The notes under the pieces: generated by a model | What the model saw: only the letters and a program-made list of their open reading frames with translations | Told to the model about the DNA's origin: nothing | The model's database searches: none | Program-made: the position numbers and the translations under genes | Part shown: positions 1 through 13,844 of the stretch, piece after piece | How the letters are laid out: every line of letters begins with the position of its first letter | How positions within the stretch are numbered: position 1 is the first letter of the stretch | From: Euryarchaeota archaeon SM23-78 | GTDB taxonomy: Archaea; Nanobdellota; Nanobdellia; Woesearchaeales; SM23-78 | Length of the DNA: 64,000 nucleotides | Reading direction: 5' to 3' | NCBI GenBank assembly: GCA_001595785.1 | Contig: LSSJ01000023.1 | Coordinates: forward strand, 4,870 to 68,869

Positions 1-2328
1 ATAGTCTTCTTGTGCAATAACAATATCTCCAAGCTCAAACCCATCACTAGGCTTATTGGCTGCTTTACCAGGAGACTCGTAATCAATGAATTTCTTAACA
101 TAATAATAAGGAAAAGTTGCTATTTTTTGTGGTAAAACATGTTTTTTGTCCTCTTCGAATTTTATCTCGTAATGAATTGCATCGTCTGATGTAGTTGGTG
201 CAAGAACCTTGCTTACTTTGCCTTTTCTAAAATTATATTTAACATCTCTAGGCTCTAGAGAGGATATAATTACAGGGTCTCCAACTTTGAATACCTCATC
301 AAGAGAAGATTCAGCTTGTTGAGCACTTGCCTGAGACTGCTCTTTGCCTGTTTCAGGTTTTTGTTGTATCTCTGGTTTTTTCATATACTTTTTTTGAGGT
401 TGTTTTTCAGCAGGCTTTGTAACTGGTTTCTTCATTGGCTTGGTTTCTGATTCTTTTAGCAGTTCTTCTAGTTCTTGTTCTTCTTTTTCAGTATGAGCAC
501 TGATTACCTTGTTTACATAACTCATAAGGGCTTTCTCTCTTGTTTTAGGATTAATAAAGCCCTTCATGAATTCAAGAGTTGATTGATCATACTCACCAAC
601 ATAGATTTTGCTCTTAATAAAGAGTTTATCTCCATCATAGATGACTGTGCCACCTGTTCCTATTAGTTTATCATTGGCTCCAAGCTGACCAGCAGATATG
701 ATTGCTTGCTCCAAGGTAAAATCCTTATTTTTAAGTAGTTGATTCAGAACTTTTCCACTCCATGACCTATAATTGGAATGTACTTGGTAATCATCTGCAT
801 ATTCCACTATCTCATCTGCAAAGTCTATGACTAAAGGGTTTATTCCGTTCAGAATAGATATGTATTTTAGGAGGGTTTGGTTCTGTTCATGTGCAGCTCC
901 TGCTATTATAAAGTCAGTCATAAACCTAATGGCTTTCTCATCATTGGTTTTCTTTAGGTCCTTGTAGATGTTGTTTGTTATTCTATTTGAAATAAGTTTT
1001 TTTAGTTTAGGCAAGGTTGCATACTCATCAGGCACTAACTGGCCTGCTTCTTTAATAGCCTTTTCAAGCCCGCTTTCTTTTGTGAATATATTGCATAGTA
1101 CTTTGTCTAGGAATCCAGCAAACTTATTGCTGGTGTATTCATAATCATTAAGGTACTCTATTGCTTTTCTAGTAAAGACATGGGTAATTTTCTTTAGGCT
1201 GGGCTTTTTTCCTTTTGTCTTCTCTTCCTCTGCTTCTGTACCAACAGCTGTACTGTAGTGTACTCTTCTACCATGCCCAATAGTAGTTGGGGTTGTATAC
1301 ACAGGGTGTCCAACTGGTGTGCCATAAGTATAATCATACCCATAGTCATATCCATACTGCCAGTTCTGTTTTCTTCCACCCCTAAATGTTCTTTGCAGCC
1401 AGTTAGGGAAATCAATCTTGGCTTTAATCTCTTTTCTTAGTTCTTCTTCTGTGAATGTAATATCATCTGGTACTTCTATAACCTTTACTGGCACTTTACT
1501 CTTGTACTGCTTTTTCTTGCCAGAAATAACATCTTCTTCTAGTACTGCTATTTCTCCGTAAGGTTCACTAGCATTATTATTAACCACAATACTGTAGCAG
1601 TAGCCTATCATCTTGGTCTCTTTGACTTCAAACTTTGAGAGCCCTATCAAGTCATTAAGTAAGGCTAGAGCTAGCTTTTTTGGGTCTTTGCCATCTGGTT
1701 TTATACCATATTTTTTAAGTAGACTAATGGCTGCTTCATTATCTTGTAACAAGTATTCGATTACTGCGTCTTCCTGGTCTTTTCCATTAATAACTATTTT
1801 ATCTTCCAATATTTTCTTTTCAGCTGTGCTCTCAATCAGATTCAGGGCCTTCTTGGTGGGCTTCTCAGTGTTAAGTGAGACAGAGTTAAGCACAGTATAG
1901 ATGTTATTATCATCTGTACCTGAGTGAAAGGTGCCAAAATCAGCATGATTATGAATCCATCCTAGTATCTGATAATTCTTTTGTTTATTCTTATTTATCT
2001 GTTCAACCTCTCTGGTTGCTAGTGCAACCTTGGCTCCTTCTACTTTTACAAAGGCAGATGAGACATCCTGGTCCTTGGCTAGGATTAGGTCTCTTACAAT
2101 GTTCTGCTCATCATCCTTTTTTCCAGCTATAAAGCCATACCACTCATAGGCCTGTCTTCCTATTTCCTTTACTAAAGGGCCATAGGCCTGTGCTTTTTCA
2201 AGGGCTTTGGTAGTTATGGGTATCTCTACTGGAATGATTATGCTTTCTTCTTGGTTTTTGGCTTGAGATGTTTGTAACAGTTCTTCTAGTTCACCTTCCT
2301 CTTCTTGCACTGGCTGGTTTTTTGCCAT
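1..2328 (-). CDS. JAMM/MPN+ metalloprotease-domain protein with a long C-terminal extension (3' partial, runs off window; absent from supplied ORF track)
   Basis: My translation of the minus strand from the ATG at 2328-2326 stays open to nt 1 (about 776 codons). It has the upstream Glu motif AYEWYGFIAG and an exact H-x-H-x7-S-x2-D motif, GWIHNHADFGTFHSGTDD (about nt 1903-1950, in frame with the ATG). The start overlaps the upstream stop as TAATG. Confidence 0.8.
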   Translation of the reverse strand, partial: MAKNQPVQEEEGELEELLQTSQAKNQEESIIIPVEIPITTKALEKAQAYGPLVKEIGRQAYEWYGFIAGKKDDEQNIVRDLILAKDQDVSSAFVKVEGAKVALATREVEQINKNKQKNYQILGWIHNHADFGTFHSGTDDNNIYTVLNSVSLNTEKPTKKALNLIESTAEKKILEDKIVINGKDQEDAVIEYLLQDNEAAISLLKKYGIKPDGKDPKKLALALLNDLIGLSKFEVKETKMIGYCYSIVVNNNASEPYGEIAVLEEDVISGKKKQYKSKVPVKVIEVPDDITFTEEELRKEIKAKIDFPNWLQRTFRGGRKQNWQYGYDYGYDYTYGTPVGHPVYTTPTTIGHGRRVHYSTAVGTEAEEEKTKGKKPSLKKITHVFTRKAIEYLNDYEYTSNKFAGFLDKVLCNIFTKESGLEKAIKEAGQLVPDEYATLPKLKKLISNRITNNIYKDLKKTNDEKAIRFMTDFIIAGAAHEQNQTLLKYISILNGINPLVIDFADEIVEYADDYQVHSNYRSWSGKVLNQLLKNKDFTLEQAIISAGQLGANDKLIGTGGTVIYDGDKLFIKSKIYVGEYDQSTLEFMKGFINPKTREKALMSYVNKVISAHTEKEEQELEELLKESETKPMKKPVTKPAEKQPQKKYMKKPEIQQKPETGKEQSQASAQQAESSLDEVFKVGDPVIISSLEPRDVKYNFRKGKVSKVLAPTTSDDAIHYEIKFEEDKKHVLPQKIATFPYYYVKKFIDYESPGKAANKPSDGFELGDIVIAQEDY

Positions 2329-3743
2329 TAAAACACCTCCTTAAGCTTCTTCAAAAGATTTTCTTTATGAACATTAGTGATGGGTAATTTTTTTCTCTTG
2401 ATTTGTTCCTTGCTTATTTTTCTGTTGCTAAAATTACCTGCTCTATGATAAGGACCGCAGGATTGTGTATAACCACTTAAAAGTACGTTTCTTGCATCAG
2501 ATAGCAGAGTAGCTACTTTGCTGGCATCATCAAGTCTACCAAGCTTAGACCTACTATATGTTCCCATACAAATGGTTTGCCAAGGATCATAGTAACTTAG
2601 GAATGGGTGAGAATAAGTTTCAATTACACGTGGATCTCCTACTTCAAACCTATCTTTATCCCTATTATAATACACCCTAACAGCAACCCTGCACTTACCA
2701 AAGCGATAATATCTATCTTCAGAAGGGTTTTTTACATCTTTTAGTACATGCTCTGGAACATGCGCATACACATAGTAATCAGACCCGTGTTTCTTAAAGC
2801 CAACATTACCTGCATCATATTCGGTTTTTTCAAAGAACTTTTCTAAGGCTTTGTTCTGCTCTTTTAGCTCCCTGATTTGGTTTATCTGTTCTTCAAACTC
2901 ATCAACTGCTTGCACATTGAACTGAGCTTCTAACTTATTCTGATAAGCATACTCAACCTCATCCACAGTGGTGTGTTGAATTAGTGAGTAGTTCTGTTTT
3001 CCTATGTTTATACATATTCCTTGCTCTCCTTTAAAAGGAGACAGTCTGTAAACAAGGCCTTTAAAAACCAGTACATCATTGTTACCCAGGATATTTGTAA
3101 GCTCTGTATCAGGGCTTTGCTTTTTTCTTTTAGCTACAGGTTTTTGCTCTAGGATGCCTGTCTGCTTATAGTAGTTGGTTAATAATGAGTCTAACTCTAA
3201 ATCCTCTTCTGGAGTTAGCTCTGGCTCTTGTGCTTCTGGGGGCCTGAGTTCTTGTAGGAGTTCTTGTTTTATCTGAGAAACATCAACTTTTAGCTCATCT
3301 CTGTCAACAGCATCCATCACCAGCTTGTCTATGCTTTTTTTCTGTTTATCTTCTTCTATAGTTTCTCCTTTAAGAAGAGCATCAACTCCATCTCTGTCTT
3401 CCATGAATAAAGGGAATACCTCATAGAGGATAAAGCGCAGAACCTTGTTCTCATCAACATATTTTTGCATCTCTCTATTACTTTTCATCTCTTGTTTTAG
3501 TCTCTCTTCTATAAAGGACTTTTTATAGTGAAAGATTTCTTCACTGTTTAGGCCTAGGTAAAACTTTTCTAGCTCATCCAAAGTGGTGCTTGGATATAAT
3601 CCTAGTTCTAGTTTTCCTGCTCTTACAAAGCCGTCCCTACTTTTTCCCTCTGCTATTTGATAAACTTGGTTCTGGAAAATAACAAAAGGGGGTTTTTCTG
3701 CTAGCTTTGCAAAAAAGGTTTTAGGTATCATTATAATCCTCAC
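2328..3743 (-). CDS. Hypothetical 471-aa protein with an internal duplication and a C-terminal Cys-containing module (possible E2/UBC-like, unproven)
   Basis: Track ORF with a GTG start overlapping the upstream stop (GTGA). Two repeats: FVIFQNQVYQIAEGK..TLDELEKFY and VLVFKGLVYRLSPFKG..TVDEVEYAY. C-terminal SHPFLSYYDPWQTICMG (His379, Cys392 at nt 2568-2570) is followed by a helix, ASKVATLLSDARNVLL. Confidence 0.6.
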   Translation of the reverse strand: MRIIMIPKTFFAKLAEKPPFVIFQNQVYQIAEGKSRDGFVRAGKLELGLYPSTTLDELEKFYLGLNSEEIFHYKKSFIEERLKQEMKSNREMQKYVDENKVLRFILYEVFPLFMEDRDGVDALLKGETIEEDKQKKSIDKLVMDAVDRDELKVDVSQIKQELLQELRPPEAQEPELTPEEDLELDSLLTNYYKQTGILEQKPVAKRKKQSPDTELTNILGNNDVLVFKGLVYRLSPFKGEQGICINIGKQNYSLIQHTTVDEVEYAYQNKLEAQFNVQAVDEFEEQINQIRELKEQNKALEKFFEKTEYDAGNVGFKKHGSDYYVYAHVPEHVLKDVKNPSEDRYYRFGKCRVAVRVYYNRDKDRFEVGDPRVIETYSHPFLSYYDPWQTICMGTYSRSKLGRLDDASKVATLLSDARNVLLSGYTQSCGPYHRAGNFSNRKISKEQIKRKKLPITNVHKENLLKKLKEVF

Positions 3744-4144
3744 ATATAAAGTTTTAATCCGCCTTCTTGGTCTTGAGCTACAATTATTTCAGCTTCTTTG
3801 TAATTTAGTCCAGATTGGGACTTCTTGGCCACAAGGTAGTCTGCTAATTTTTGTGAGCCTTTTGCTGGTTCATCATTCACTGTAACTCCATATGCTTCTC
3901 TCATCTCTACCTTGATTCTGTCTGCTATTCTTGCGTTTTTTCTAGTTAGCTCTGGCTCATTTACTGCATACTTGATTACTTGATCTATAGTTGCATCTGA
4001 CAGTTCATCCGGTAGAATTAGCTTCACTGATTTTTCACTTGAACTCCCTGGCTTTATCTTAATTACTCTTGGCAACTCTGCTTGTACTTTCTCGTCAAGA
4101 CTGATTGCTTTGTTTGCCTCTTCTTTTGGTTTTGTTTTTTCCAT
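3740..4144 (-). CDS. Small 134-aa protein with a Gly-Gly five residues from the C-terminus (candidate ubiquitin-like pro-protein)
   Basis: Track ORF. The C-terminus reads KLADYLVAKKSQSGLNYKEAEIIVAQDQEGG-LKLYM, with GG codons at 3758-3763. It is translationally coupled to the next gene. Confidence 0.55.
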   Translation of the reverse strand: MEKTKPKEEANKAISLDEKVQAELPRVIKIKPGSSSEKSVKLILPDELSDATIDQVIKYAVNEPELTRKNARIADRIKVEMREAYGVTVNDEPAKGSQKLADYLVAKKSQSGLNYKEAEIIVAQDQEGGLKLYM

Positions 4145-4156
4145 CTTCTTACCTCC

Positions 4157-4693
4157 TTATCTTTTTATATAATTTTTTCCAAATTTTTTGTAACGCAGCT
4201 TGGCTGCAAATACTTCTTCCACAAGGGGAAAGGTCTTTCTTAGGATTTTGTAGGCTTTTTCCCATGCTTCTGGCTCTGCTTTTCCAGAAACTCCTATCTC
4301 TATCTTCTGGCTCTGGTCACCTAAGGGATAGCAAAGAATCCCTGGTTGGGCATGGTCTCCATGCCCTATGGTCCCTCCTGTGAATATGCAGTATGGAATA
4401 ATGTATTTCCCTGCTTGTTTTCCTAGTTTAAAGCCCAGTTTTTCAGGTTTTGCTCCTTCTTTCTCTGGTATGTTTAGATCTATGATTGCAAGCGCATATA
4501 CCTTTTCTTCAAGCTTGGTTTGGGCTTCTTGATAGGTTTGGGCAAAGTCAACATTTATGTTATTTATTTTATCAAAGAAAAGTTTTGCACCTACTCTGTT
4601 CATTAAATCGTCTTCAACTATTAGGAGTTCTAATGGTGTCTTGGTGTTCAATTTGTGCCTCCTCTTTGTTTTATTTGTATTTTCCCCCTTCAT
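4157..4693 (-). CDS. CheY-like receiver (REC) domain protein, stand-alone
   Basis: LELLIVEDD, AIIDLNIP (putative phospho-Asp) and CIFTGG motifs. I prefer the ATG at 4693 (MKGENTNK) over the track start at 4735, because an A/T-rich TATA-like box at 4713-4728 lies about 27 nt upstream. Confidence 0.6.
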   Translation of the reverse strand: MKGENTNKTKRRHKLNTKTPLELLIVEDDLMNRVGAKLFFDKINNINVDFAQTYQEAQTKLEEKVYALAIIDLNIPEKEGAKPEKLGFKLGKQAGKYIIPYCIFTGGTIGHGDHAQPGILCYPLGDQSQKIEIGVSGKAEPEAWEKAYKILRKTFPLVEEVFAAKLRYKKFGKNYIKR

Positions 4694-4845
4694 AATGGTA
4701 AAGTGGAAAGGGAAAAATATATATTTTACGTACATACAAGCATTATAACACGTTTTATATATACTTCGTCTCTACTTAGTGAGTTCAAGTTCATCCCCCA
4801 TTACTCTTGTTACATAATCAGTCAAAAGCTACATTATTTATACTA

Positions 4846-4869
4846 TTGTTGTAGAAAAATCTACAACAA
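4846..4869. repeat. Perfect 10-bp inverted repeat with a 4-nt loop (TTGTTGTAGA aaaa TCTACAACAA)
   Basis: Read directly. Arms are 4846-4855 and 4860-4869. It lies between the Zn-ribbon gene and the REC operon. Confidence 0.9.
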
Positions 4870-5085
4870 ATTTAATTAAGGTTTTTGAGTCAAGTTCGAG
4901 CTTCCCTTCTTTCTGAAGTTCTTTCTTACTCATCTTATCTCAACCTTTCAATTTTTCATCTCACACAGTATCTTTTGTCAAATTCTTGAGCTTTTATTCT
5001 GCCTGGATAGACAAATCCGTCAGGACCAATAGTATAAACCACTGATCTAGCTTCCTGCCTAACAGGGAAAAGTTTTTTCTGCTGC

Positions 5086-5238
5086 TCATTTTTTCTTTGG
5101 CATCCATCCATTTTTTTCCACCTCTATTTTTGTCGTGCTTATTTTTCCAGGGTAGTCAAATCTTCTTTTGCATCTTGGGCAGGACTTTGGTTGTTCTACT
5201 TTGGGTGTCCATTCATAATCGCATTTTTCGCATATCAT
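5086..5238 (-). CDS. Small zinc-ribbon protein (50 aa, below the ORF-track cutoff)
   Basis: My translation is MICEKCDYEWTPKVEQPKSCPRCKRRFDYPGKISTTKIEVEKNGWMPKKK. It has paired CxxC motifs, and a GAGGT sequence lies about 8 nt upstream of the ATG. Confidence 0.5.
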   Translation of the reverse strand: MICEKCDYEWTPKVEQPKSCPRCKRRFDYPGKISTTKIEVEKNGWMPKKK

Positions 5239-5385
5239 TTTTGAACCTCTGAGCTTGTAACTACTAAATAATGGTTATAATAATAGTAATAGAACCCATT
5301 TCGGATTAATATTTTTCTGATATTATTAATATCAATAATATTAAAATAGAAAGTTTTAAATATAAATAAGGCTTGATATCTGGGT

Positions 5386-6309
5386 ATGAAGCGTAAAGTG
5401 ATAAAACAAGGCGGGGGCGGCTTCACAGTCTACCTGCCAAAGAAATGGGCTGATAAAAAAGGCTTAAAGCCAGGAGACCAAATAGATATCAAGGAAACAG
5501 GCACAGCCCTAACCCTAGACACAGAAGTAAAAGAAAGAAAACAAACAAGCATAGAAATAACAGAAGAAAACAGAGCAGACATAAAGAATATTCTCACCCA
5601 CCTTTATAGAAGAGGCTTTGATATAATAATCATAACCAACACAGATAAAGAACTTCAAGATGAGATAAAAGCAATCACAAATAATATATTATTAGGCTTT
5701 GAGATTACTGAAAAACAAGAAAAAAGCTGTAAAATAGAGAATATCTCAGAGCCAACAGAAGAAAAATATGATGTGCTTCTAAGGAGAGTGTTCTTAATAA
5801 TAAAAGAAACTCAAAGGATAGTAAATAATGACTTCGAGAACAACAAGTTCAGGAGCATGAAAGAAATACAAGAGTTCAGAGACCAGCAAGATAGATACAT
5901 CTTGTTCTGCAGGAGAATACTCACCAAAGAAAGGTTTGAAATAGAAAACCCATCTCTTGAATGGGAGCTCCTCACCTTTTTAATGCACATAGAGCATGCA
6001 TATTACTACCTGTATCAATATGCCTCAAAAAACCAGTTAAAAAAGAACAAAAACATACTCGAGCTATTAGAGCACCTGGAAGAATACTTTCAGCTCTACT
6101 ACAATGCTTACTATAAGAAAGATATCAGATCCATCCACAAAATAAACCAGCTAAGAAACAAATATCAATTTGGCAAATGCTACCAATACCTAGAACAATC
6201 AAAATCAAATGACACAATAGCCTTATCATATATAAGAGAACTATTCAGACTTATACAGATAGGAACCAGTCCTATTTTGAGTGAGTATCTTGAGAAGATT
6301 CTTGACTAG
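5386..6309 (+). CDS. AbrB/SpoVT-domain plus PhoU-like domain regulator (archaeal phosphate-uptake-regulator type)
   Basis: The N-terminus VIKQGGGGFTVYLPKKWADKKGLKPGDQIDI is a typical AbrB looped-hinge motif, followed by a helical PhoU-like remainder. A TATA-like TTTAAATATAAATA lies upstream. Confidence 0.6.
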   Translation: MKRKVIKQGGGGFTVYLPKKWADKKGLKPGDQIDIKETGTALTLDTEVKERKQTSIEITEENRADIKNILTHLYRRGFDIIIITNTDKELQDEIKAITNNILLGFEITEKQEKSCKIENISEPTEEKYDVLLRRVFLIIKETQRIVNNDFENNKFRSMKEIQEFRDQQDRYILFCRRILTKERFEIENPSLEWELLTFLMHIEHAYYYLYQYASKNQLKKNKNILELLEHLEEYFQLYYNAYYKKDIRSIHKINQLRNKYQFGKCYQYLEQSKSNDTIALSYIRELFRLIQIGTSPILSEYLEKILD

Positions 6310-8179
6310 CAGAATAATTATGTCTGTTGCCATTTACAACTATTCTTTTTGAAATCTCTGGATGATTATAGAGATTATACATAAGCCTTTTTAAGAATAT
6401 TCTTCTTTCCTCAGGAATAATGTGTTTTCCATCCCTGTCCTTTGCATCAACATAATCAGAGAATTTATTACTATTAGCTGCTCTTATAGCAGCGTCCTTC
6501 ATTGGATCTCCAAGATAAGTATGCACAATTGCATCTTCAAAATCAATAAGACCCTTAGACTCATCAATCTGACTTAAATCAATTGCACATGCAAGCAGGT
6601 CTTCTATTTTATCATCTGCATAAATCACACCAGAGGTTGCATTAGAAGGATGAAGATTAGCATATTTTATTATGTAATCAATGGGTTCTGCAGGCGTGCC
6701 TGTTTCATTAGCTGTTTTTATCCATTCTGTAACTATTTTATAAACAAGATTCTCTTTTTTACTTTTTACTACTCTAAAATTATGCCCTTCTTCAAGGTAC
6801 TTATAATTATGTGTTTTTTTACCAAATACTACTAATTCATTAATATTATAAGGCTTGTCAACTTCAAGAAGAACCTCGCTCTTCTCAACAGGCCTTACCT
6901 GGATCCTAGATATAATATCTGTCTTACTTGTATAATCTGGTTTAGGAGATATATAGGCAAGCCAGGCAAATGCACCAATAGCACAGGCTATACCAATCCC
7001 TGTTGGTACACCAACAAATATCTTCTTTTTTATATTTGATTTAAGCTGGTCAATAGCTCTCCTCTCAACCATTCTCTCATTATAAGCCTTTACTGCTTTT
7101 TCAAATTTTTTCTTGAGGTCTTTCCCATCAAAAGAATGCGCATTTTCACCTAAACCAGATGCATCAGCAGCATTATCAGTCTCGCAAAAGCAGTCTCTTA
7201 TAATCTCTGCAAATTCAAAAGGAATCTCATATTCACGAGCAAGTTTTTCATCTATAGTTCTTCTAATGTTGCCAAAATGCTTTAGAGTAGCATTAGAATA
7301 TTCACTTTTACTATAAAATTCCTTCATGTAGTCTTTAAGCTTTTCAAACCCTCCTTTTCCCATAGTCTTATCAATCTCATCCTGAAGAGGATACTTACCA
7401 GTAAACATCTTATAGAGTAGACAACCAAAAGAGAATACATCTGCTGATTTCTCAGGGTGTTCTCCTTCTAAGAACAATCTTGGAGAACGGGTGTACAAGA
7501 AGCCCATGTTATCCCTGGGAGCCACACCAATAGCAATTGATGCATACGTAGAAGTGCCCATATCACTGATAAGTACTTTACCTCTTTTATCAACTGCTAG
7601 GTTGTCAGGTTTTAAATCACAATGAGCCTTTGCATATATCTCATGAATCTCTGCAATACCATTAACAATGTGCTCTGAATAATCAATTACTTCATCAATA
7701 GCCAGACCAGATTTTAGAATAGTTGCTTTTCTGTCACCTACAAAGACATGTCTTGTATTCTTTGATTCTTGAGCAGCATCAAGTATTTCTGATAAAAAGG
7801 TATCATATTTAGGCATCACAATAAAGGGCTTTCCTTCTTCATCAAGCTCAAACCTTCTAGGAACAATATTGGCGCATGCAGTTAGTTTCCCCCCTTCTTT
7901 TCTCATAGCCTCAAACTCATTCAGCTGTCTGTAAAGCATCTGTTTTTCAGCAGTAAGACCCGGAGCCATGACTTTGATAGCCACATCCTCTTTCATAACA
8001 GTGTCCCAGTAATGAGCAACCTTTCCCCAGCATCCTCTTCCTAAGAAGCCTTTTAAAGTATATCTCTCAGATTTGATTAAGTGTTCAAGACCAGAGGATT
8101 CTGTATTTTCAAGTATTTCTTCTACTTCTTCTGATCCCCACTCTTCATTCTCTATTCTTATTTCTGTTTTTTCTTCCAA
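6272..8179 (-). CDS. Ser/Thr protein kinase, N-terminal kinase domain, one TM segment, C-terminal domain
   Basis: GRGCWGKV glycine loop, AIKV, HCDLKPDNLAV catalytic loop, SDMGTS. A TM segment (VGVPTGIGIACAIGAFAWLAYI) follows. Confidence 0.8.
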   Translation of the reverse strand: MEEKTEIRIENEEWGSEEVEEILENTESSGLEHLIKSERYTLKGFLGRGCWGKVAHYWDTVMKEDVAIKVMAPGLTAEKQMLYRQLNEFEAMRKEGGKLTACANIVPRRFELDEEGKPFIVMPKYDTFLSEILDAAQESKNTRHVFVGDRKATILKSGLAIDEVIDYSEHIVNGIAEIHEIYAKAHCDLKPDNLAVDKRGKVLISDMGTSTYASIAIGVAPRDNMGFLYTRSPRLFLEGEHPEKSADVFSFGCLLYKMFTGKYPLQDEIDKTMGKGGFEKLKDYMKEFYSKSEYSNATLKHFGNIRRTIDEKLAREYEIPFEFAEIIRDCFCETDNAADASGLGENAHSFDGKDLKKKFEKAVKAYNERMVERRAIDQLKSNIKKKIFVGVPTGIGIACAIGAFAWLAYISPKPDYTSKTDIISRIQVRPVEKSEVLLEVDKPYNINELVVFGKKTHNYKYLEEGHNFRVVKSKKENLVYKIVTEWIKTANETGTPAEPIDYIIKYANLHPSNATSGVIYADDKIEDLLACAIDLSQIDESKGLIDFEDAIVHTYLGDPMKDAAIRAANSNKFSDYVDAKDRDGKHIIPEERRIFLKRLMYNLYNHPEISKRIVVNGNRHNYSASQESSQDTHSK

Positions 8180-9723
8180 TTTCCTCCTCCATAACCAGGA
8201 AAGGGTGGTATTTTATTCAAGTCTGGTCCAATTATAGGAAAAGGCGGTCCTGGATGTGCTGCATTATACTTTTCTTTTGCTTTTTCCCATTTAAGATTTA
8301 CATTTGATTCATGATCAATTAGATGATGATGTCCAGGAGCATAATTTTTTAAGTGTTCAAAGGCCATAAATAAATCACGATTATTTCTAGCTAAGTATGT
8401 TGAAAATGAATTCTCATCAATCTTATCTCCTAGCTCTTGAATCAGTGCATAGGTAGTCTCTGGGTCTAGGTAAGCTACAAAAGCAATCTTTTTTACATAT
8501 TTCTCAGGAACCTTTGTGTCTTGCTTAATCTTTTCAACCCAGTATTTAAGCTCCCATTTACCTTCACTTTCAAAACTACCTTCCCAAGTAACTTTATCCT
8601 CAAAAAGCCTGATAACTCTTGCTTTTCTTTCATAAGAAGCTACTCTTTCCTTCTGATCTTCTGCTCTGATTAGTTCCTGGTTTAGTTTAAGAGTCTCATT
8701 GTGTCTAGCTATAAAACCAACAAGCATGGCCAGTGCACTTGCTCCTACTAAAGTCCAGACAGAATATCTTATAGCTCTTTGTTTTGGTCTTGATTTTTCA
8801 TATTTACGAATTGCTTTATTTAATAGATGAGAAAGCTCATGTGCATCTTTTATTCTATAATCAGGATAGTCAAGGCATTTCTTTAGGAGTTTTTTGAATG
8901 CCTTTGGAATCTTTTTTGAGTGGTCTACTTTCTCTATAATTCTCGGAGTCCATCCAAGGGCTTTATGTATCATAATTTCATCAACATAGTGATTTGGATT
9001 CTTTTCTAGTTCTTTTTCAAACACATACTCTCCTGTGAACATTCTATAGAGCAATGAGCCAAAAGACCATATATCTGATTGTTTGGTTGGTCTGCTTCCT
9101 TTTAAAAAGCATTCAGGAGCTCTTGTAAGCACAAAGCCTAAATTGTCTCTAGGAGATGTTGATTGCCCATAAGATGCAAAGGTTGAGGTTCCAAGGTCGT
9201 TTAATAAAGCAATGCCATGCTCATCCAGTGCAACATTATCTGCTTTTATATCTCCATGCACTCTTCTCAGCTTTGTGTGCATCTCAAGAACACCATTTGC
9301 AATATCACATGCATAAGAGATTATTTTATCAATACTAAGCCCTTGTTTTAGATGATTTCTTTGTGAATTATCTTGAAGTATATCAGAGAGAAATTGTTCA
9401 TACTTGGGCATCACAATAAAGGGCTTTCCTTGTTCATCAAATTCTAGTCTTCTTGGGACAATATTTGAACATGCTTTTAACTCTGCTTCTTCTTTTACCA
9501 TTGCTTTAAATGTGTCTAGATTCCTATACATTGCCTGTTGTAAGGCCAGCTCATTAGGTGAAAATACCTTTATTGCTACTTTCTTATTGAGTTTAACATC
9601 ATCTGCATCATAAACAGTTCCCCAGCAGCCTTCACCTAATACCTTGGCAAGAACATATCTTTCATGTTTAATAATGGCTGTCTCAAGGTTCTGCTTTGGT
9701 TGCGGGTTTATTATTTCTCTCAT
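8158..9723 (-). CDS. Ser/Thr protein kinase (paralogue of 6272-8179), one TM segment
   Basis: GEGCWGTV, AIKV, HGDIKADNVAL, NDLGTS. The kinase core is collinear with the downstream paralogue, and a TM segment (VWTLVGASALAMLVGFI) follows. Confidence 0.8.
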   Translation of the reverse strand: MREIINPQPKQNLETAIIKHERYVLAKVLGEGCWGTVYDADDVKLNKKVAIKVFSPNELALQQAMYRNLDTFKAMVKEEAELKACSNIVPRRLEFDEQGKPFIVMPKYEQFLSDILQDNSQRNHLKQGLSIDKIISYACDIANGVLEMHTKLRRVHGDIKADNVALDEHGIALLNDLGTSTFASYGQSTSPRDNLGFVLTRAPECFLKGSRPTKQSDIWSFGSLLYRMFTGEYVFEKELEKNPNHYVDEIMIHKALGWTPRIIEKVDHSKKIPKAFKKLLKKCLDYPDYRIKDAHELSHLLNKAIRKYEKSRPKQRAIRYSVWTLVGASALAMLVGFIARHNETLKLNQELIRAEDQKERVASYERKARVIRLFEDKVTWEGSFESEGKWELKYWVEKIKQDTKVPEKYVKKIAFVAYLDPETTYALIQELGDKIDENSFSTYLARNNRDLFMAFEHLKNYAPGHHHLIDHESNVNLKWEKAKEKYNAAHPGPPFPIIGPDLNKIPPFPGYGGGNWKKKQK

Positions 9724-13732: not shown

Positions 13733-13844
13733 AGCGCTCGCTGGGATTTGCACCCAGGATCACAGGGGACAACTTTTCATTGGTAAAACCTTATCTTACC
13801 AGTAAATTTGCAGCCTGTTGCCTTAGCTACTTGGCCACGAGCGC
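13733..13844 (-). tRNA. tRNA-Cys(GCA) with one canonical 40-nt intron (37/38)
   Basis: Hand fold: acceptor GCGCTCG/CGAGCGC, anticodon stem ACAGG/CCTGT, loop CTGCAA[intron]C, T stem CTGGG/CCCAG. The T-loop is the atypical TGCAAAT. A TATA-like GCTTTATTAAG lies about 28 nt upstream. Confidence 0.85.

Follow-up and report, generated by a model that had tools for sequence, protein, structure and literature searches.

The first 4,735 nucleotides of a 64,000-nucleotide stretch of contig LSSJ01000023.1 from Euryarchaeota archaeon SM23-78, a member of the Woesearchaeales (the whole stretch is called the window here), raise the question whether this DPANN archaeon encodes a pathway for ubiquitin-like protein conjugation and, if so, which proteins serve as its activating (E1) and conjugating (E2) enzymes. 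Four minus-strand genes are found here. An earlier note, made from the letters alone, had read them as a receiver, a ubiquitin-like protein (Ubl) with a Gly-Gly tail, a possibly E2-like protein (called X below) and a JAMM peptidase, with no visible E1. Based on the analysis presented here, the region is likely to be the 5' part of a DPANN operon for Ubl conjugation, with a novel E2-equivalent and possibly feeding an unfoldase.

Both the listing of open reading frames (ORFs) and a direct reading of the sequence confirm that the four genes adjoin, as the earlier note had it (Table 1). Two of its three junctions also stand, namely the 12-nt spacer at 4145-4156 (ggaggtaagaag, containing GGAGG), which separates the receiver-like gene from the Ubl gene, and the TAATG stop/start overlap at 2326-2330 between the X and JAMM genes, with a GGAGG ahead. 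The third, a GTGA overlap at 3740-3743, does not. Homologues of X and the NCBI gene call begin with MIPKTFF, which corresponds to ATG 3731, and the two genes are therefore more likely to be separated by an 8-nt spacer that follows the TGA. Residue numbers of X (His379, Cys392) are given for the 471-amino acid (aa) form counted from GTG 3743. The four window proteins were scanned against Pfam, NCBIfam, PADLOC and PHROGs. The Ubl and X matched nothing in these collections, nor among PDB sequences. The PRTRC system was considered as a candidate and rejected, as no NCBIfam PRTRC model matched.

In the Ubl, Gly128-Gly129 (codons 3758-3763) is followed by the residues LKLYM (3743-3757). Nine sequences went into an AlphaFold2 model, whose predicted local distance difference test (pLDDT) score is 77.8, with core blocks at 80-92. 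It contains a beta-grasp core at residues 26-124, in the order strand, strand, helix, helix, strand(s), short helix, strand, strand, while residues 1-21 (approximately) and 131-134 are disordered. Foldseek retrieved 869 PDB matches at E<=10, and the best 50 are all ubiquitin-like beta-grasp proteins (probability 0.85-1.0), including Atg8/LC3/GABARAP, Caldiarchaeum ubiquitin (6fno_D, 6fj7, 6fnn_C), FAT10, NEDD8, SUMO and ubiquitin itself. Few homologues could be found directly, but each X homologue is preceded by a small ORF of the same family. A Gly-Gly followed by a tail of 1-9 residues is present in nine of the ten homologues examined and is conserved down to 20-27% identity. The C-termini, the one in the window included, read QEGG-LKLYM, QEGG-LRKVYV, QEGG-LKYSL, DQDGG-LEYKIR and QEGG-Y, and further ones QEGG-LVRLIR, QEGG-LISLV, ARGG-I, QEGG-FSSQFTVWGL and QEGG-LASLLQ. 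The suggestion of a beta-grasp protein made as a pro-form, which had been drawn from the tail motif, is therefore supported by the predicted structure and its Foldseek neighbours as well as by the conserved Gly-Gly and tail, with LKLYM as the predicted removable part.

The apparent lack of an E1 is explained by the edge of the window. X has 100% identity to the hypothetical protein AYK26_01415 encoded by Euryarchaeota archaeon SM23-78, and a JGI metagenome contig of 13,138 nt from the same genome (L002) overlaps window positions 1-7783 with one mismatch and reaches 5,355 nt beyond window position 1. Its gene order is receiver-like protein, pro-Ubl, X, JAB, E1, a 259-aa protein (p259 in Table 1), a ClpX-like ATPase and a 319-aa protein. 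The genes that come after that of the 950-aa JAMM protein, those for the 466-aa ThiF protein (the E1), the 259-aa protein, the 534-aa AAA+ ATPase and the 319-aa protein, share its orientation, and their ends overlap or abut. The E1 gene starts 522 nt past window position 1. Hence, 'no visible E1' is true of the window only, since the operon continues with a tandem ThiF E1 as its very next gene.

This E1 matches Pfam ThiF at 6.8e-63 in two stretches. Among PDB sequences, its C-terminal half (approximately residues 230-432) resembles MoeB, the closest at 6.6e-21, as well as Uba4, the SUMO E1 Uba2, the NEDD8 E1 and the active domain of UBA1. In the N-terminal half, residues 9-163 align with residues 54-208 of the inactive adenylation domain of human UBA1 (E 5e-11 to 6e-11). 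An alignment of six cassette E1s was used to compare the two halves. The first begins with a conserved RYxRQ..I.GWxQ and its glycine loop is degenerate, whereas the second carries GAGALG, D.D.VE.TNLNRQ and DxVDN. CxxC and CxC pairs are located where the zinc site of ThiF/MoeB sits, and an invariant Cys is found in the motif SC..AP.PS within a short crossover loop, about 20 residues separating the CxxC pair from this Cys. The loop of these E1s (about 20 aa) thus holds no inserted catalytic-Cys domain. There is no C-terminal ubiquitin-fold domain either, the last Pfam-matched residue being 434 of 466. Given the two ThiF stretches, the likeness of the N-terminal half to inactive UBA1 and the degenerate loop opposite GAGALG, the E1 is, as judged from its sequence, a single-chain pseudo-dimeric enzyme with an inactive N-terminal and an active C-terminal half.

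Known sulfur-carrier systems also combine a short-tailed Gly-Gly Ubl with a JAMM protein and a ThiF protein. The same architecture here, with MoeB as the nearest PDB match to the active half of the E1, might therefore indicate a pathway of the QbsE/QbsD/QbsC or CysO/Mec type. The Ubl would then be trimmed by the JAMM peptidase, adenylated by the ThiF enzyme and turned into a thiocarboxylate that supplies sulfur to a biosynthetic reaction, with X as a relay through a cysteine persulfide. Such a role is nevertheless very improbable. In the loci examined, the cassette is not accompanied by a rhodanese domain, a cysteine desulfurase or any biosynthetic enzyme, and six locus groups have a linked unfoldase of the ClpX type. 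The structural matches of the Ubl are conjugated modifiers, with no MoaD or ThiS among the best 50 of the 869. The fused pair of inactive and active halves is moreover known from conjugation E1s, both those of eukaryotes and bacterial BilD (PMC10557695).

The third component of a conjugation pathway, the JAMM peptidase, has a complete motif as had been claimed: E62...H126-N-H-x7-S-x2-D139, with H126-D139 at window 1912-1953. The motif, together with Glu62, is conserved in six homologues. Matches to Pfam are weak (Prok-JAB, E 1.2e-3; JAB, 1e-2) and below the gathering score. According to L002 the full-length protein has 950 aa, and it is 35% identical over 621 aa to a Woesearchaeota homologue. 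From about window position 294 downwards it continues into a long C-terminal extension of repeated beta-rich modules. This module of about 60-90 aa (F[KE]xGDxV ... GVEF ... G..P..Y) occurs approximately three times in the long JAB C-terminus (window ~1-294, L002 7436-8305) and twice in the 319-aa protein encoded after the ClpX-like gene (L002 12091-13050; BLASTP 5e-11). It is apparently also present at the N-terminus of an X paralogue (L022 2780-~3100). No Pfam family matches the module, which may be a binding module specific to the system.

X, the protein in the E2 position, belongs to a large family. An exhaustive HMMER search of 1.84 billion cluster representatives gave 350 members with E<=1e-3, of which 189 reached <=1e-10 and 40 reached <=1e-30, and this family of at least 350 cluster representatives has no Pfam model. 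In the window, His379 is encoded at 2607-2609, His379-Pro-Phe at 2601-2609 and Cys392 at 2568-2570. In an alignment of 73 sequences, Cys392 is kept in 72, Pro380 in 69, Phe381 in 67 and His379 in 62, and Asn457, Gly315 and Phe348 are also nearly invariant. Conservation of His379 and Cys392, on which the E2-like call had relied, is thereby established. In the window protein, the His lies 13 residues ahead of the Cys, a distance that differs from member to member, and the third motif residue is Phe, not Asn.

The AlphaFold2 model of X, based on the same 73-sequence alignment, scores pLDDT 90.9 and a predicted template modelling (pTM) score of 0.78. Two repeats of a four-strand unit with long helices are visible at approximately 20-114 and 224-305, and residues 17-58 match 224-266 in BLASTP (E 2e-4), so that the internal duplication noticed before is seen both in sequence and in the two strand-plus-helix modules of the model. 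In the C-terminal alpha/beta domain, seven strands (308-373) are followed by the HPF stretch, a short strand ending in Cys392 and helices at 398-403, 406-423, 445-451 and 459-470. Helix, sheet, HPx, Cys and helices is the element order of the UBC fold, and the order modelled for the part of X set against it (residues ~284-471; helix, beta sheet, HPF, Cys, helices) agrees with it. The local sequence P-R-V-I-E-T-Y-S-H-P-F...I-C-M-G likewise resembles the E2 signature. A Foldseek search against BFVD returned one significant neighbour, the 420-aa viral protein A0A1B0WLX5 (E 1.7e-4; 168 columns, 13% identity). One Cys kept in 72 of 73 members, an upstream HPF and a gene placed between those of the Ubl and JAB/E1 together form the pattern of a catalytic residue. 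Based on this pattern and the model, X is probably a thioester-forming E2-equivalent, and it is put forward as a candidate for that role.

Next to the proteins themselves, the gene neighbourhoods are informative. An alignment-based locus search yielded 6 genome loci and 3 metagenome loci, and all ORFs of 25 loci were scanned with hidden Markov models built from the cassette proteins. The order Ubl-X-JAB-E1, or a near variant of it, recurs in L002, L010, L014, L016, L017, L018, L023 and L024, with X identities down to 23%, and the short contigs L001 and L011-L013 show partial orders as expected (Table 1). Ubl, X, JAB and E1 are found together in each independent locus whose flanks are long enough, so that these genes co-occur across related genomes. 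Every host that carries a name belongs to the DPANN archaea (Woesearchaeota, Pacearchaeota, Nanoarchaeia). An exception is formed by L008 (10001-11050) and L009 (3938-4987), in which a Ubl with Gly-Gly and LKYSL is followed by the 212-aa N-terminal repeat of X and no E1 or JAB lies within 10 kb; this pair may be what is left of a decayed cassette, or it may cooperate with enzymes from another part of the genome. Some Woesearchaeota cassettes have two to three X paralogues (L022 2780-6325; L023 3004-6383 and 8858-10525; L025 2-334 and 2819-4441), the first L025 copy being a 110-aa fragment at a contig end. In L023, where the flanks are visible, several X genes accompany one Ubl, one JAB and one E1. 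A motif scan found HPF...Cys in all paralogues checked except L023 4683-6383.

Table 1. Genes and neighbouring features of the window (positions in the window) and order of the cassette genes in other loci
Feature or locus	Position	Strand	Basis, starts or gene order
Receiver-like protein, 192 aa	4157..4735	-	ATG 4735; alternative starts 4693, 4651; first gene of local operon
Pro-form ubiquitin-like protein (Ubl), 134 aa	3740..4144	-	AlphaFold2, Foldseek, homologue C-termini
Protein X, 467 aa from ATG 3731 (471 aa if GTG 3743)	2328..3731	-	Family alignment, AlphaFold2
JAMM/JAB metallopeptidase, first 776 of 950 aa	1..2328	-	Starts ATG 2328, leaves window at position 1
50-aa ORF, zinc-ribbon-like	5086..5238	-	Two CxxC pairs
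307-aa protein, AbrB/MazE-type N-terminal domain	5386..6309	+	Pfam 1.3e-4
Ser/Thr kinase	6272..8179	-	Pfam Pkinase 7e-20
Ser/Thr kinase	8158..9723	-	Pfam Pkinase 5e-27
tRNA, 112 nt	13733..13844	-	Rfam 48.5 bits
L002 (this genome), L016 (Woesearchaeota)			Ubl-X-long JAB-E1-p259-ClpX-like
L010, X 23% identical			Ubl-X-JAB-E1
L014/L015, L017, L018/L019, metagenome contigs			ClpX-like-Ubl-X-JAB-E1
L024, Pacearchaeota			ClpX-like-Ubl-X-JAB-E1
L023, Woesearchaeota			Ubl-X-X-JAB-E1-X
L025, Woesearchaeota			X-JAB-E1-X
L020, Nanoarchaeia			JAB-p259-...-X-E1
L021, Woesearchaeota			X-E1
L022, Woesearchaeota			Two adjacent X genes

A ClpX-like gene lies in or beside the cassette in L002, L014, L016, L017, L018 and L024, i.e. 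in six of about ten informative locus groups. Its 534-aa product in this genome matches ClpX structures at 1e-64 and HslU at approximately 1e-38, with the GYVG pore loop, Walker A and Walker B intact, and is by its sequence a genuine ClpX homologue. To our knowledge, ClpX is not expected in archaea. The IGF loop for ClpP docking is not conserved, the corresponding region aligning to REKKPAESPLTEEELRS. The 66-residue N-terminus contains no Cys and hence no zinc-binding N-domain, and no protease gene is linked among the flanking genes examined. Based on gene linkage, the conjugation cascade is possibly coupled to this unfoldase.

Gene content and order, residue conservation, co-occurrence and the fold or family of Ubl, JAB, E1 and ClpX were read directly from the data, and from these we infer a chemistry (modelled on what is established for JAMM, E1 and E2 enzymes), a role for X and the link to the unfoldase. 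The JAMM peptidase would trim the short tail after the Gly-Gly and so expose the Ubl C-terminus. The E1, with its C-terminal domain active and its N-terminal adenylation domain degenerate and presumably inactive, would adenylate the Ubl, which would then become thioester-linked to the invariant Cys in the short crossover loop. The Ubl might next move to Cys392 of X, which by its motif layout would be a very divergent E2-like enzyme whose large N-terminal repeats select targets or bind the E1. The presence in some genomes of two to three X paralogues for one Ubl and one E1 is as expected of specificity factors. X would transfer the Ubl to lysines of the targets, and the JAMM peptidase could reverse this transfer. 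Tagged proteins would probably be unfolded or extracted by the ClpX homologue, perhaps starting from the disordered N-terminus of the Ubl.

Several observations weigh against this scheme. Foldseek comparison of the X model with PDB gives a best E of 0.27, with no E2 among the 50 matches listed. None of the 73 members matches the UQ_con or Prok-E2 Pfam models at E<=1, and the family profile finds nothing among PDB sequences. An hhalign comparison of X with six canonical E2s (approximate sequences) is collinear and places HPF on HPN and Cys on Cys at P 0.04-0.1, but its score was equalled in 6 of 150 column shuffles. Nine of the 73 sequences have Gly at position 379. Members of this GPFY subgroup (e.g., P0044, P0060, P0065, P0075, P0081, P0097 and L024) have a shorter loop before the invariant Cys, and as GPFY replaces HPF in them, His379 is not essential in part of the family. 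The Ubl of the Woesearchaeota locus L016 (7593-7967, MFH1637991.1) ends in EEQYG-LCY, thus with Tyr-Gly in place of Gly-Gly. Finally, L010 and L023 have ample flanks and no ClpX-like gene, so that unfoldase coupling is not obligatory. An E2 fold of X is thus tentative: the motif layout, element order and conserved His and Cys agree with it, whereas the structure and Pfam searches gave no E2 match and the profile comparison is marginal. In L016, the E1, JAB and X look intact. A harvest of bacterial E2s via plasmid ThiF matches was rejected as a source of comparison, the two regions opened being ThiF-MFS transporter pairs and not E2 systems.

Another possibility might be that no E2 is involved at all. 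Haloferax UbaA/SAMP is an archaeal E2-independent system with an E1 of the short-crossover-loop type. The cassette E1 likewise has a short, MoeB/UbaA-like crossover loop with a Cys and without the inserted Cys domain, and neither structural nor profile searches place X in the UBC superfamily. In such a SAMP/Urm1-like pathway, the E1 alone would hand the Ubl to its targets. X would then be a substrate, a scaffold or an adaptor, for example for the unfoldase, and its Cys would have a different role. This seems unlikely, as it leaves aside the near-invariant Cys and upstream HPF of X, whose gene lies between those of the Ubl and JAB/E1 in almost all loci. In addition, the expansion of X paralogues beside one Ubl and one E1 suits an enzyme that confers specificity better than a single substrate.

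The genomic surroundings bear on what an E2-dependent conjugation pathway would be for. The window is archaeal chromosome, with genes for ABCE1, a GCD14-type tRNA methyltransferase, endonuclease dU and a PIN protein. An Rfam-detected tRNA, presumably intron-containing, fits an archaeal genome (Table 1), while ARAGORN found no tRNA anywhere in the window. In other loci the flanks are housekeeping genes as well (enolase, thymidylate synthase, NAD salvage genes, eIF5A). In L010 (2578-19759) the cassette is placed within a run of NAD-salvage/synthesis genes: NAPRTase, two isochorismatase/nicotinamidase-like genes, NAD synthase and NMNAT-Nudix. Mobile-element or defence-island context was considered and rejected, given the housekeeping flanks and the absence of a PADLOC match.

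Characterised bacterial operons of Ubl, E1, E2 and JAB act in phage defence (PMC10557695, PMC11601596), and among prokaryotic E1s the fused inactive/active form is otherwise described for BilD. Together with the differing number of X paralogues between genomes, this could point to an accessory immune module of the Bil, CBASS-Cap2 or Bub type, with the same chemistry directed at virus proteins. We regard this as quite unlikely, since none of the PADLOC models for defence systems matches the Ubl, X or JAB, the flanks are of the housekeeping kind, and no relative was found in phage records (tblastn of X) or in IMG/VR contigs. For these reasons, a cellular modification pathway is favoured over an immune module, although not strongly.

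The first gene of the local operon is of a different nature. LLIVEDD, AIIDLNIP and IFTGG are present in its product as quoted in the earlier note, and the DD, the Asp of IIDLN and the Thr of IFTGG are visible, with no conserved Lys identified. NCBIfam matches are to receiver domains of hybrid kinases. The Pfam Response_reg match, however, covers only the N-terminal half (profile positions 2-58 of 111; E 2.5e-6) and, at 28.1 bits, remains below the cut-off of 30.2, so that the receiver call holds for the motifs and less so for the domain. A homologue of the C-terminus lies upstream of the cassette in the closest relative (L001, 56% identical), and the gene was not found in the other loci. As it is kept only in the window lineage and this closest relative, the receiver is a lineage-specific local regulatory addition rather than the defining first gene it had been taken for; elsewhere that position is occupied by the ClpX-like ATPase.

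Upstream of the cassette and on its strand, the window contains two tandem Ser/Thr kinase genes that overlap slightly, both with long C-terminal extensions in their products. A Pkinase gene is also found directly after the E1 in the unrelated locus L017 (8712-9527). The kinases and the receiver-like first gene may point to phospho-regulation. Between the kinases and the cassette lie the 50-aa zinc-ribbon-like ORF and the gene of the 307-aa AbrB/MazE-type protein.

Compared with systems already described, the cassette shares their logic and differs in the protein at the E2 position, the E1, the ClpX-like partner and the host range. With the prokaryotic Ubl-E1-E2-JAB operons (the Iyer-Burroughs-Aravind classes and Bil) it has in common a Gly-Gly beta-grasp Ubl, an E1 encoded in the operon and a complete JAMM motif, and its E2 position is taken by a conserved Cys protein. 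Type II BilABCD (bacterial ISG15-like) has the same four-part set of Ubl (BilA), Cys enzyme (BilB, the E2), JAMM protein (BilC) and E1 (BilD), and its JAMM protein also pre-processes a Ubl that carries residues beyond the C-terminal Gly. In contrast, BilD has a helical Cys domain of about 80 aa in its crossover loop, where the cassette E1 has about 20 aa holding the Cys. BilB is a recognisable UBC-fold E2, whereas X is three times larger, has duplicated N-terminal modules and shows no detectable E2 similarity. The cassette, moreover, is found in DPANN archaea in a housekeeping context and is often linked to a ClpX-like ATPase.

In operons of the Caldiarchaeum/Asgard type, a Ubl precursor is trimmed by an Rpn11/JAMM peptidase (PMC6043591, PMC5654768). 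The operon of Caldiarchaeum subterraneum and the Asgard archaea (Ub, E1, E2, RING E3, Rpn11) resembles the cassette in being archaeal and in its precursor Ubl, and Caldiarchaeum ubiquitin is one of the best structural matches. The cassette, on the other hand, has neither a RING E3 nor a canonical E2. Its 134-aa Ubl carries an additional helix and begins with a disordered stretch, its E1 is a fused pseudo-dimer and the linked ATPase is of the ClpX type and not proteasomal. With Haloferax SAMP/UbaA/HvJAMM1 it has in common a Gly-Gly beta-grasp modifier, a MoeB-like E1 with a short-loop Cys and a JAMM isopeptidase. SAMPylation, however, proceeds without an E2, with a single-ThiF E1, scattered genes and SAMPs that also take part in sulfur transfer, whereas the cassette has a dedicated Cys protein in the operon and a tandem E1.

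Purely as functional analogies, Pup-Mpa-proteasome and ubiquitin-Rpn11-Rpt also pair a tag having a disordered end with an AAA+ unfoldase, as the cassette does in its encoded set, and the JAMM peptidase could take the tag off at the unfoldase as Rpn11 does. The differences are that the tagging enzymes show no homology to Pup ligase, that the unfoldase is a ClpX relative without the IGF loop and that no protease gene is linked, the coupling being suggested by gene neighbourhood. A full-text literature search, incomplete in its coverage, found no description of the cassette, and an earlier description is possible.

Outside the eukaryotes, complete Ubl conjugation cascades have been described in few lineages (Caldiarchaeum and Asgard archaea; Bil, CBASS and Bub in bacteria). 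The cassette would add a widespread one from the DPANN archaea, whose cell biology is almost unknown. Its unusual traits are the fused inactive/active E1, a large family of unannotated Cys enzymes at the E2 position and the frequent linkage to a ClpX homologue. If X does not have a UBC fold, or if the unfoldase link is real, the cassette would be more than a variant of known systems. A bolder proposal, which we consider doubtful, is that X founds an unrecognised class of Ubl-conjugating enzymes, either as a UBC derivative that has diverged beyond the reach of present fold searches or as an independent invention, and that the DPANN module is a self-contained tag-and-unfold pathway, which labels proteins with the Ubl and passes them to the ClpX-type unfoldase, with the JAMM peptidase recycling the tag. 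If this were true, the module would be the archaeal counterpart of ubiquitin-Rpn11-Rpt and Pup-Mpa, assembled from other components. Should the tag-and-unfold reading be right, the system would provide a tractable minimal model of how tagging came to be coupled to AAA+ unfoldases and would be relevant to how the E1 architecture of eukaryotes arose.

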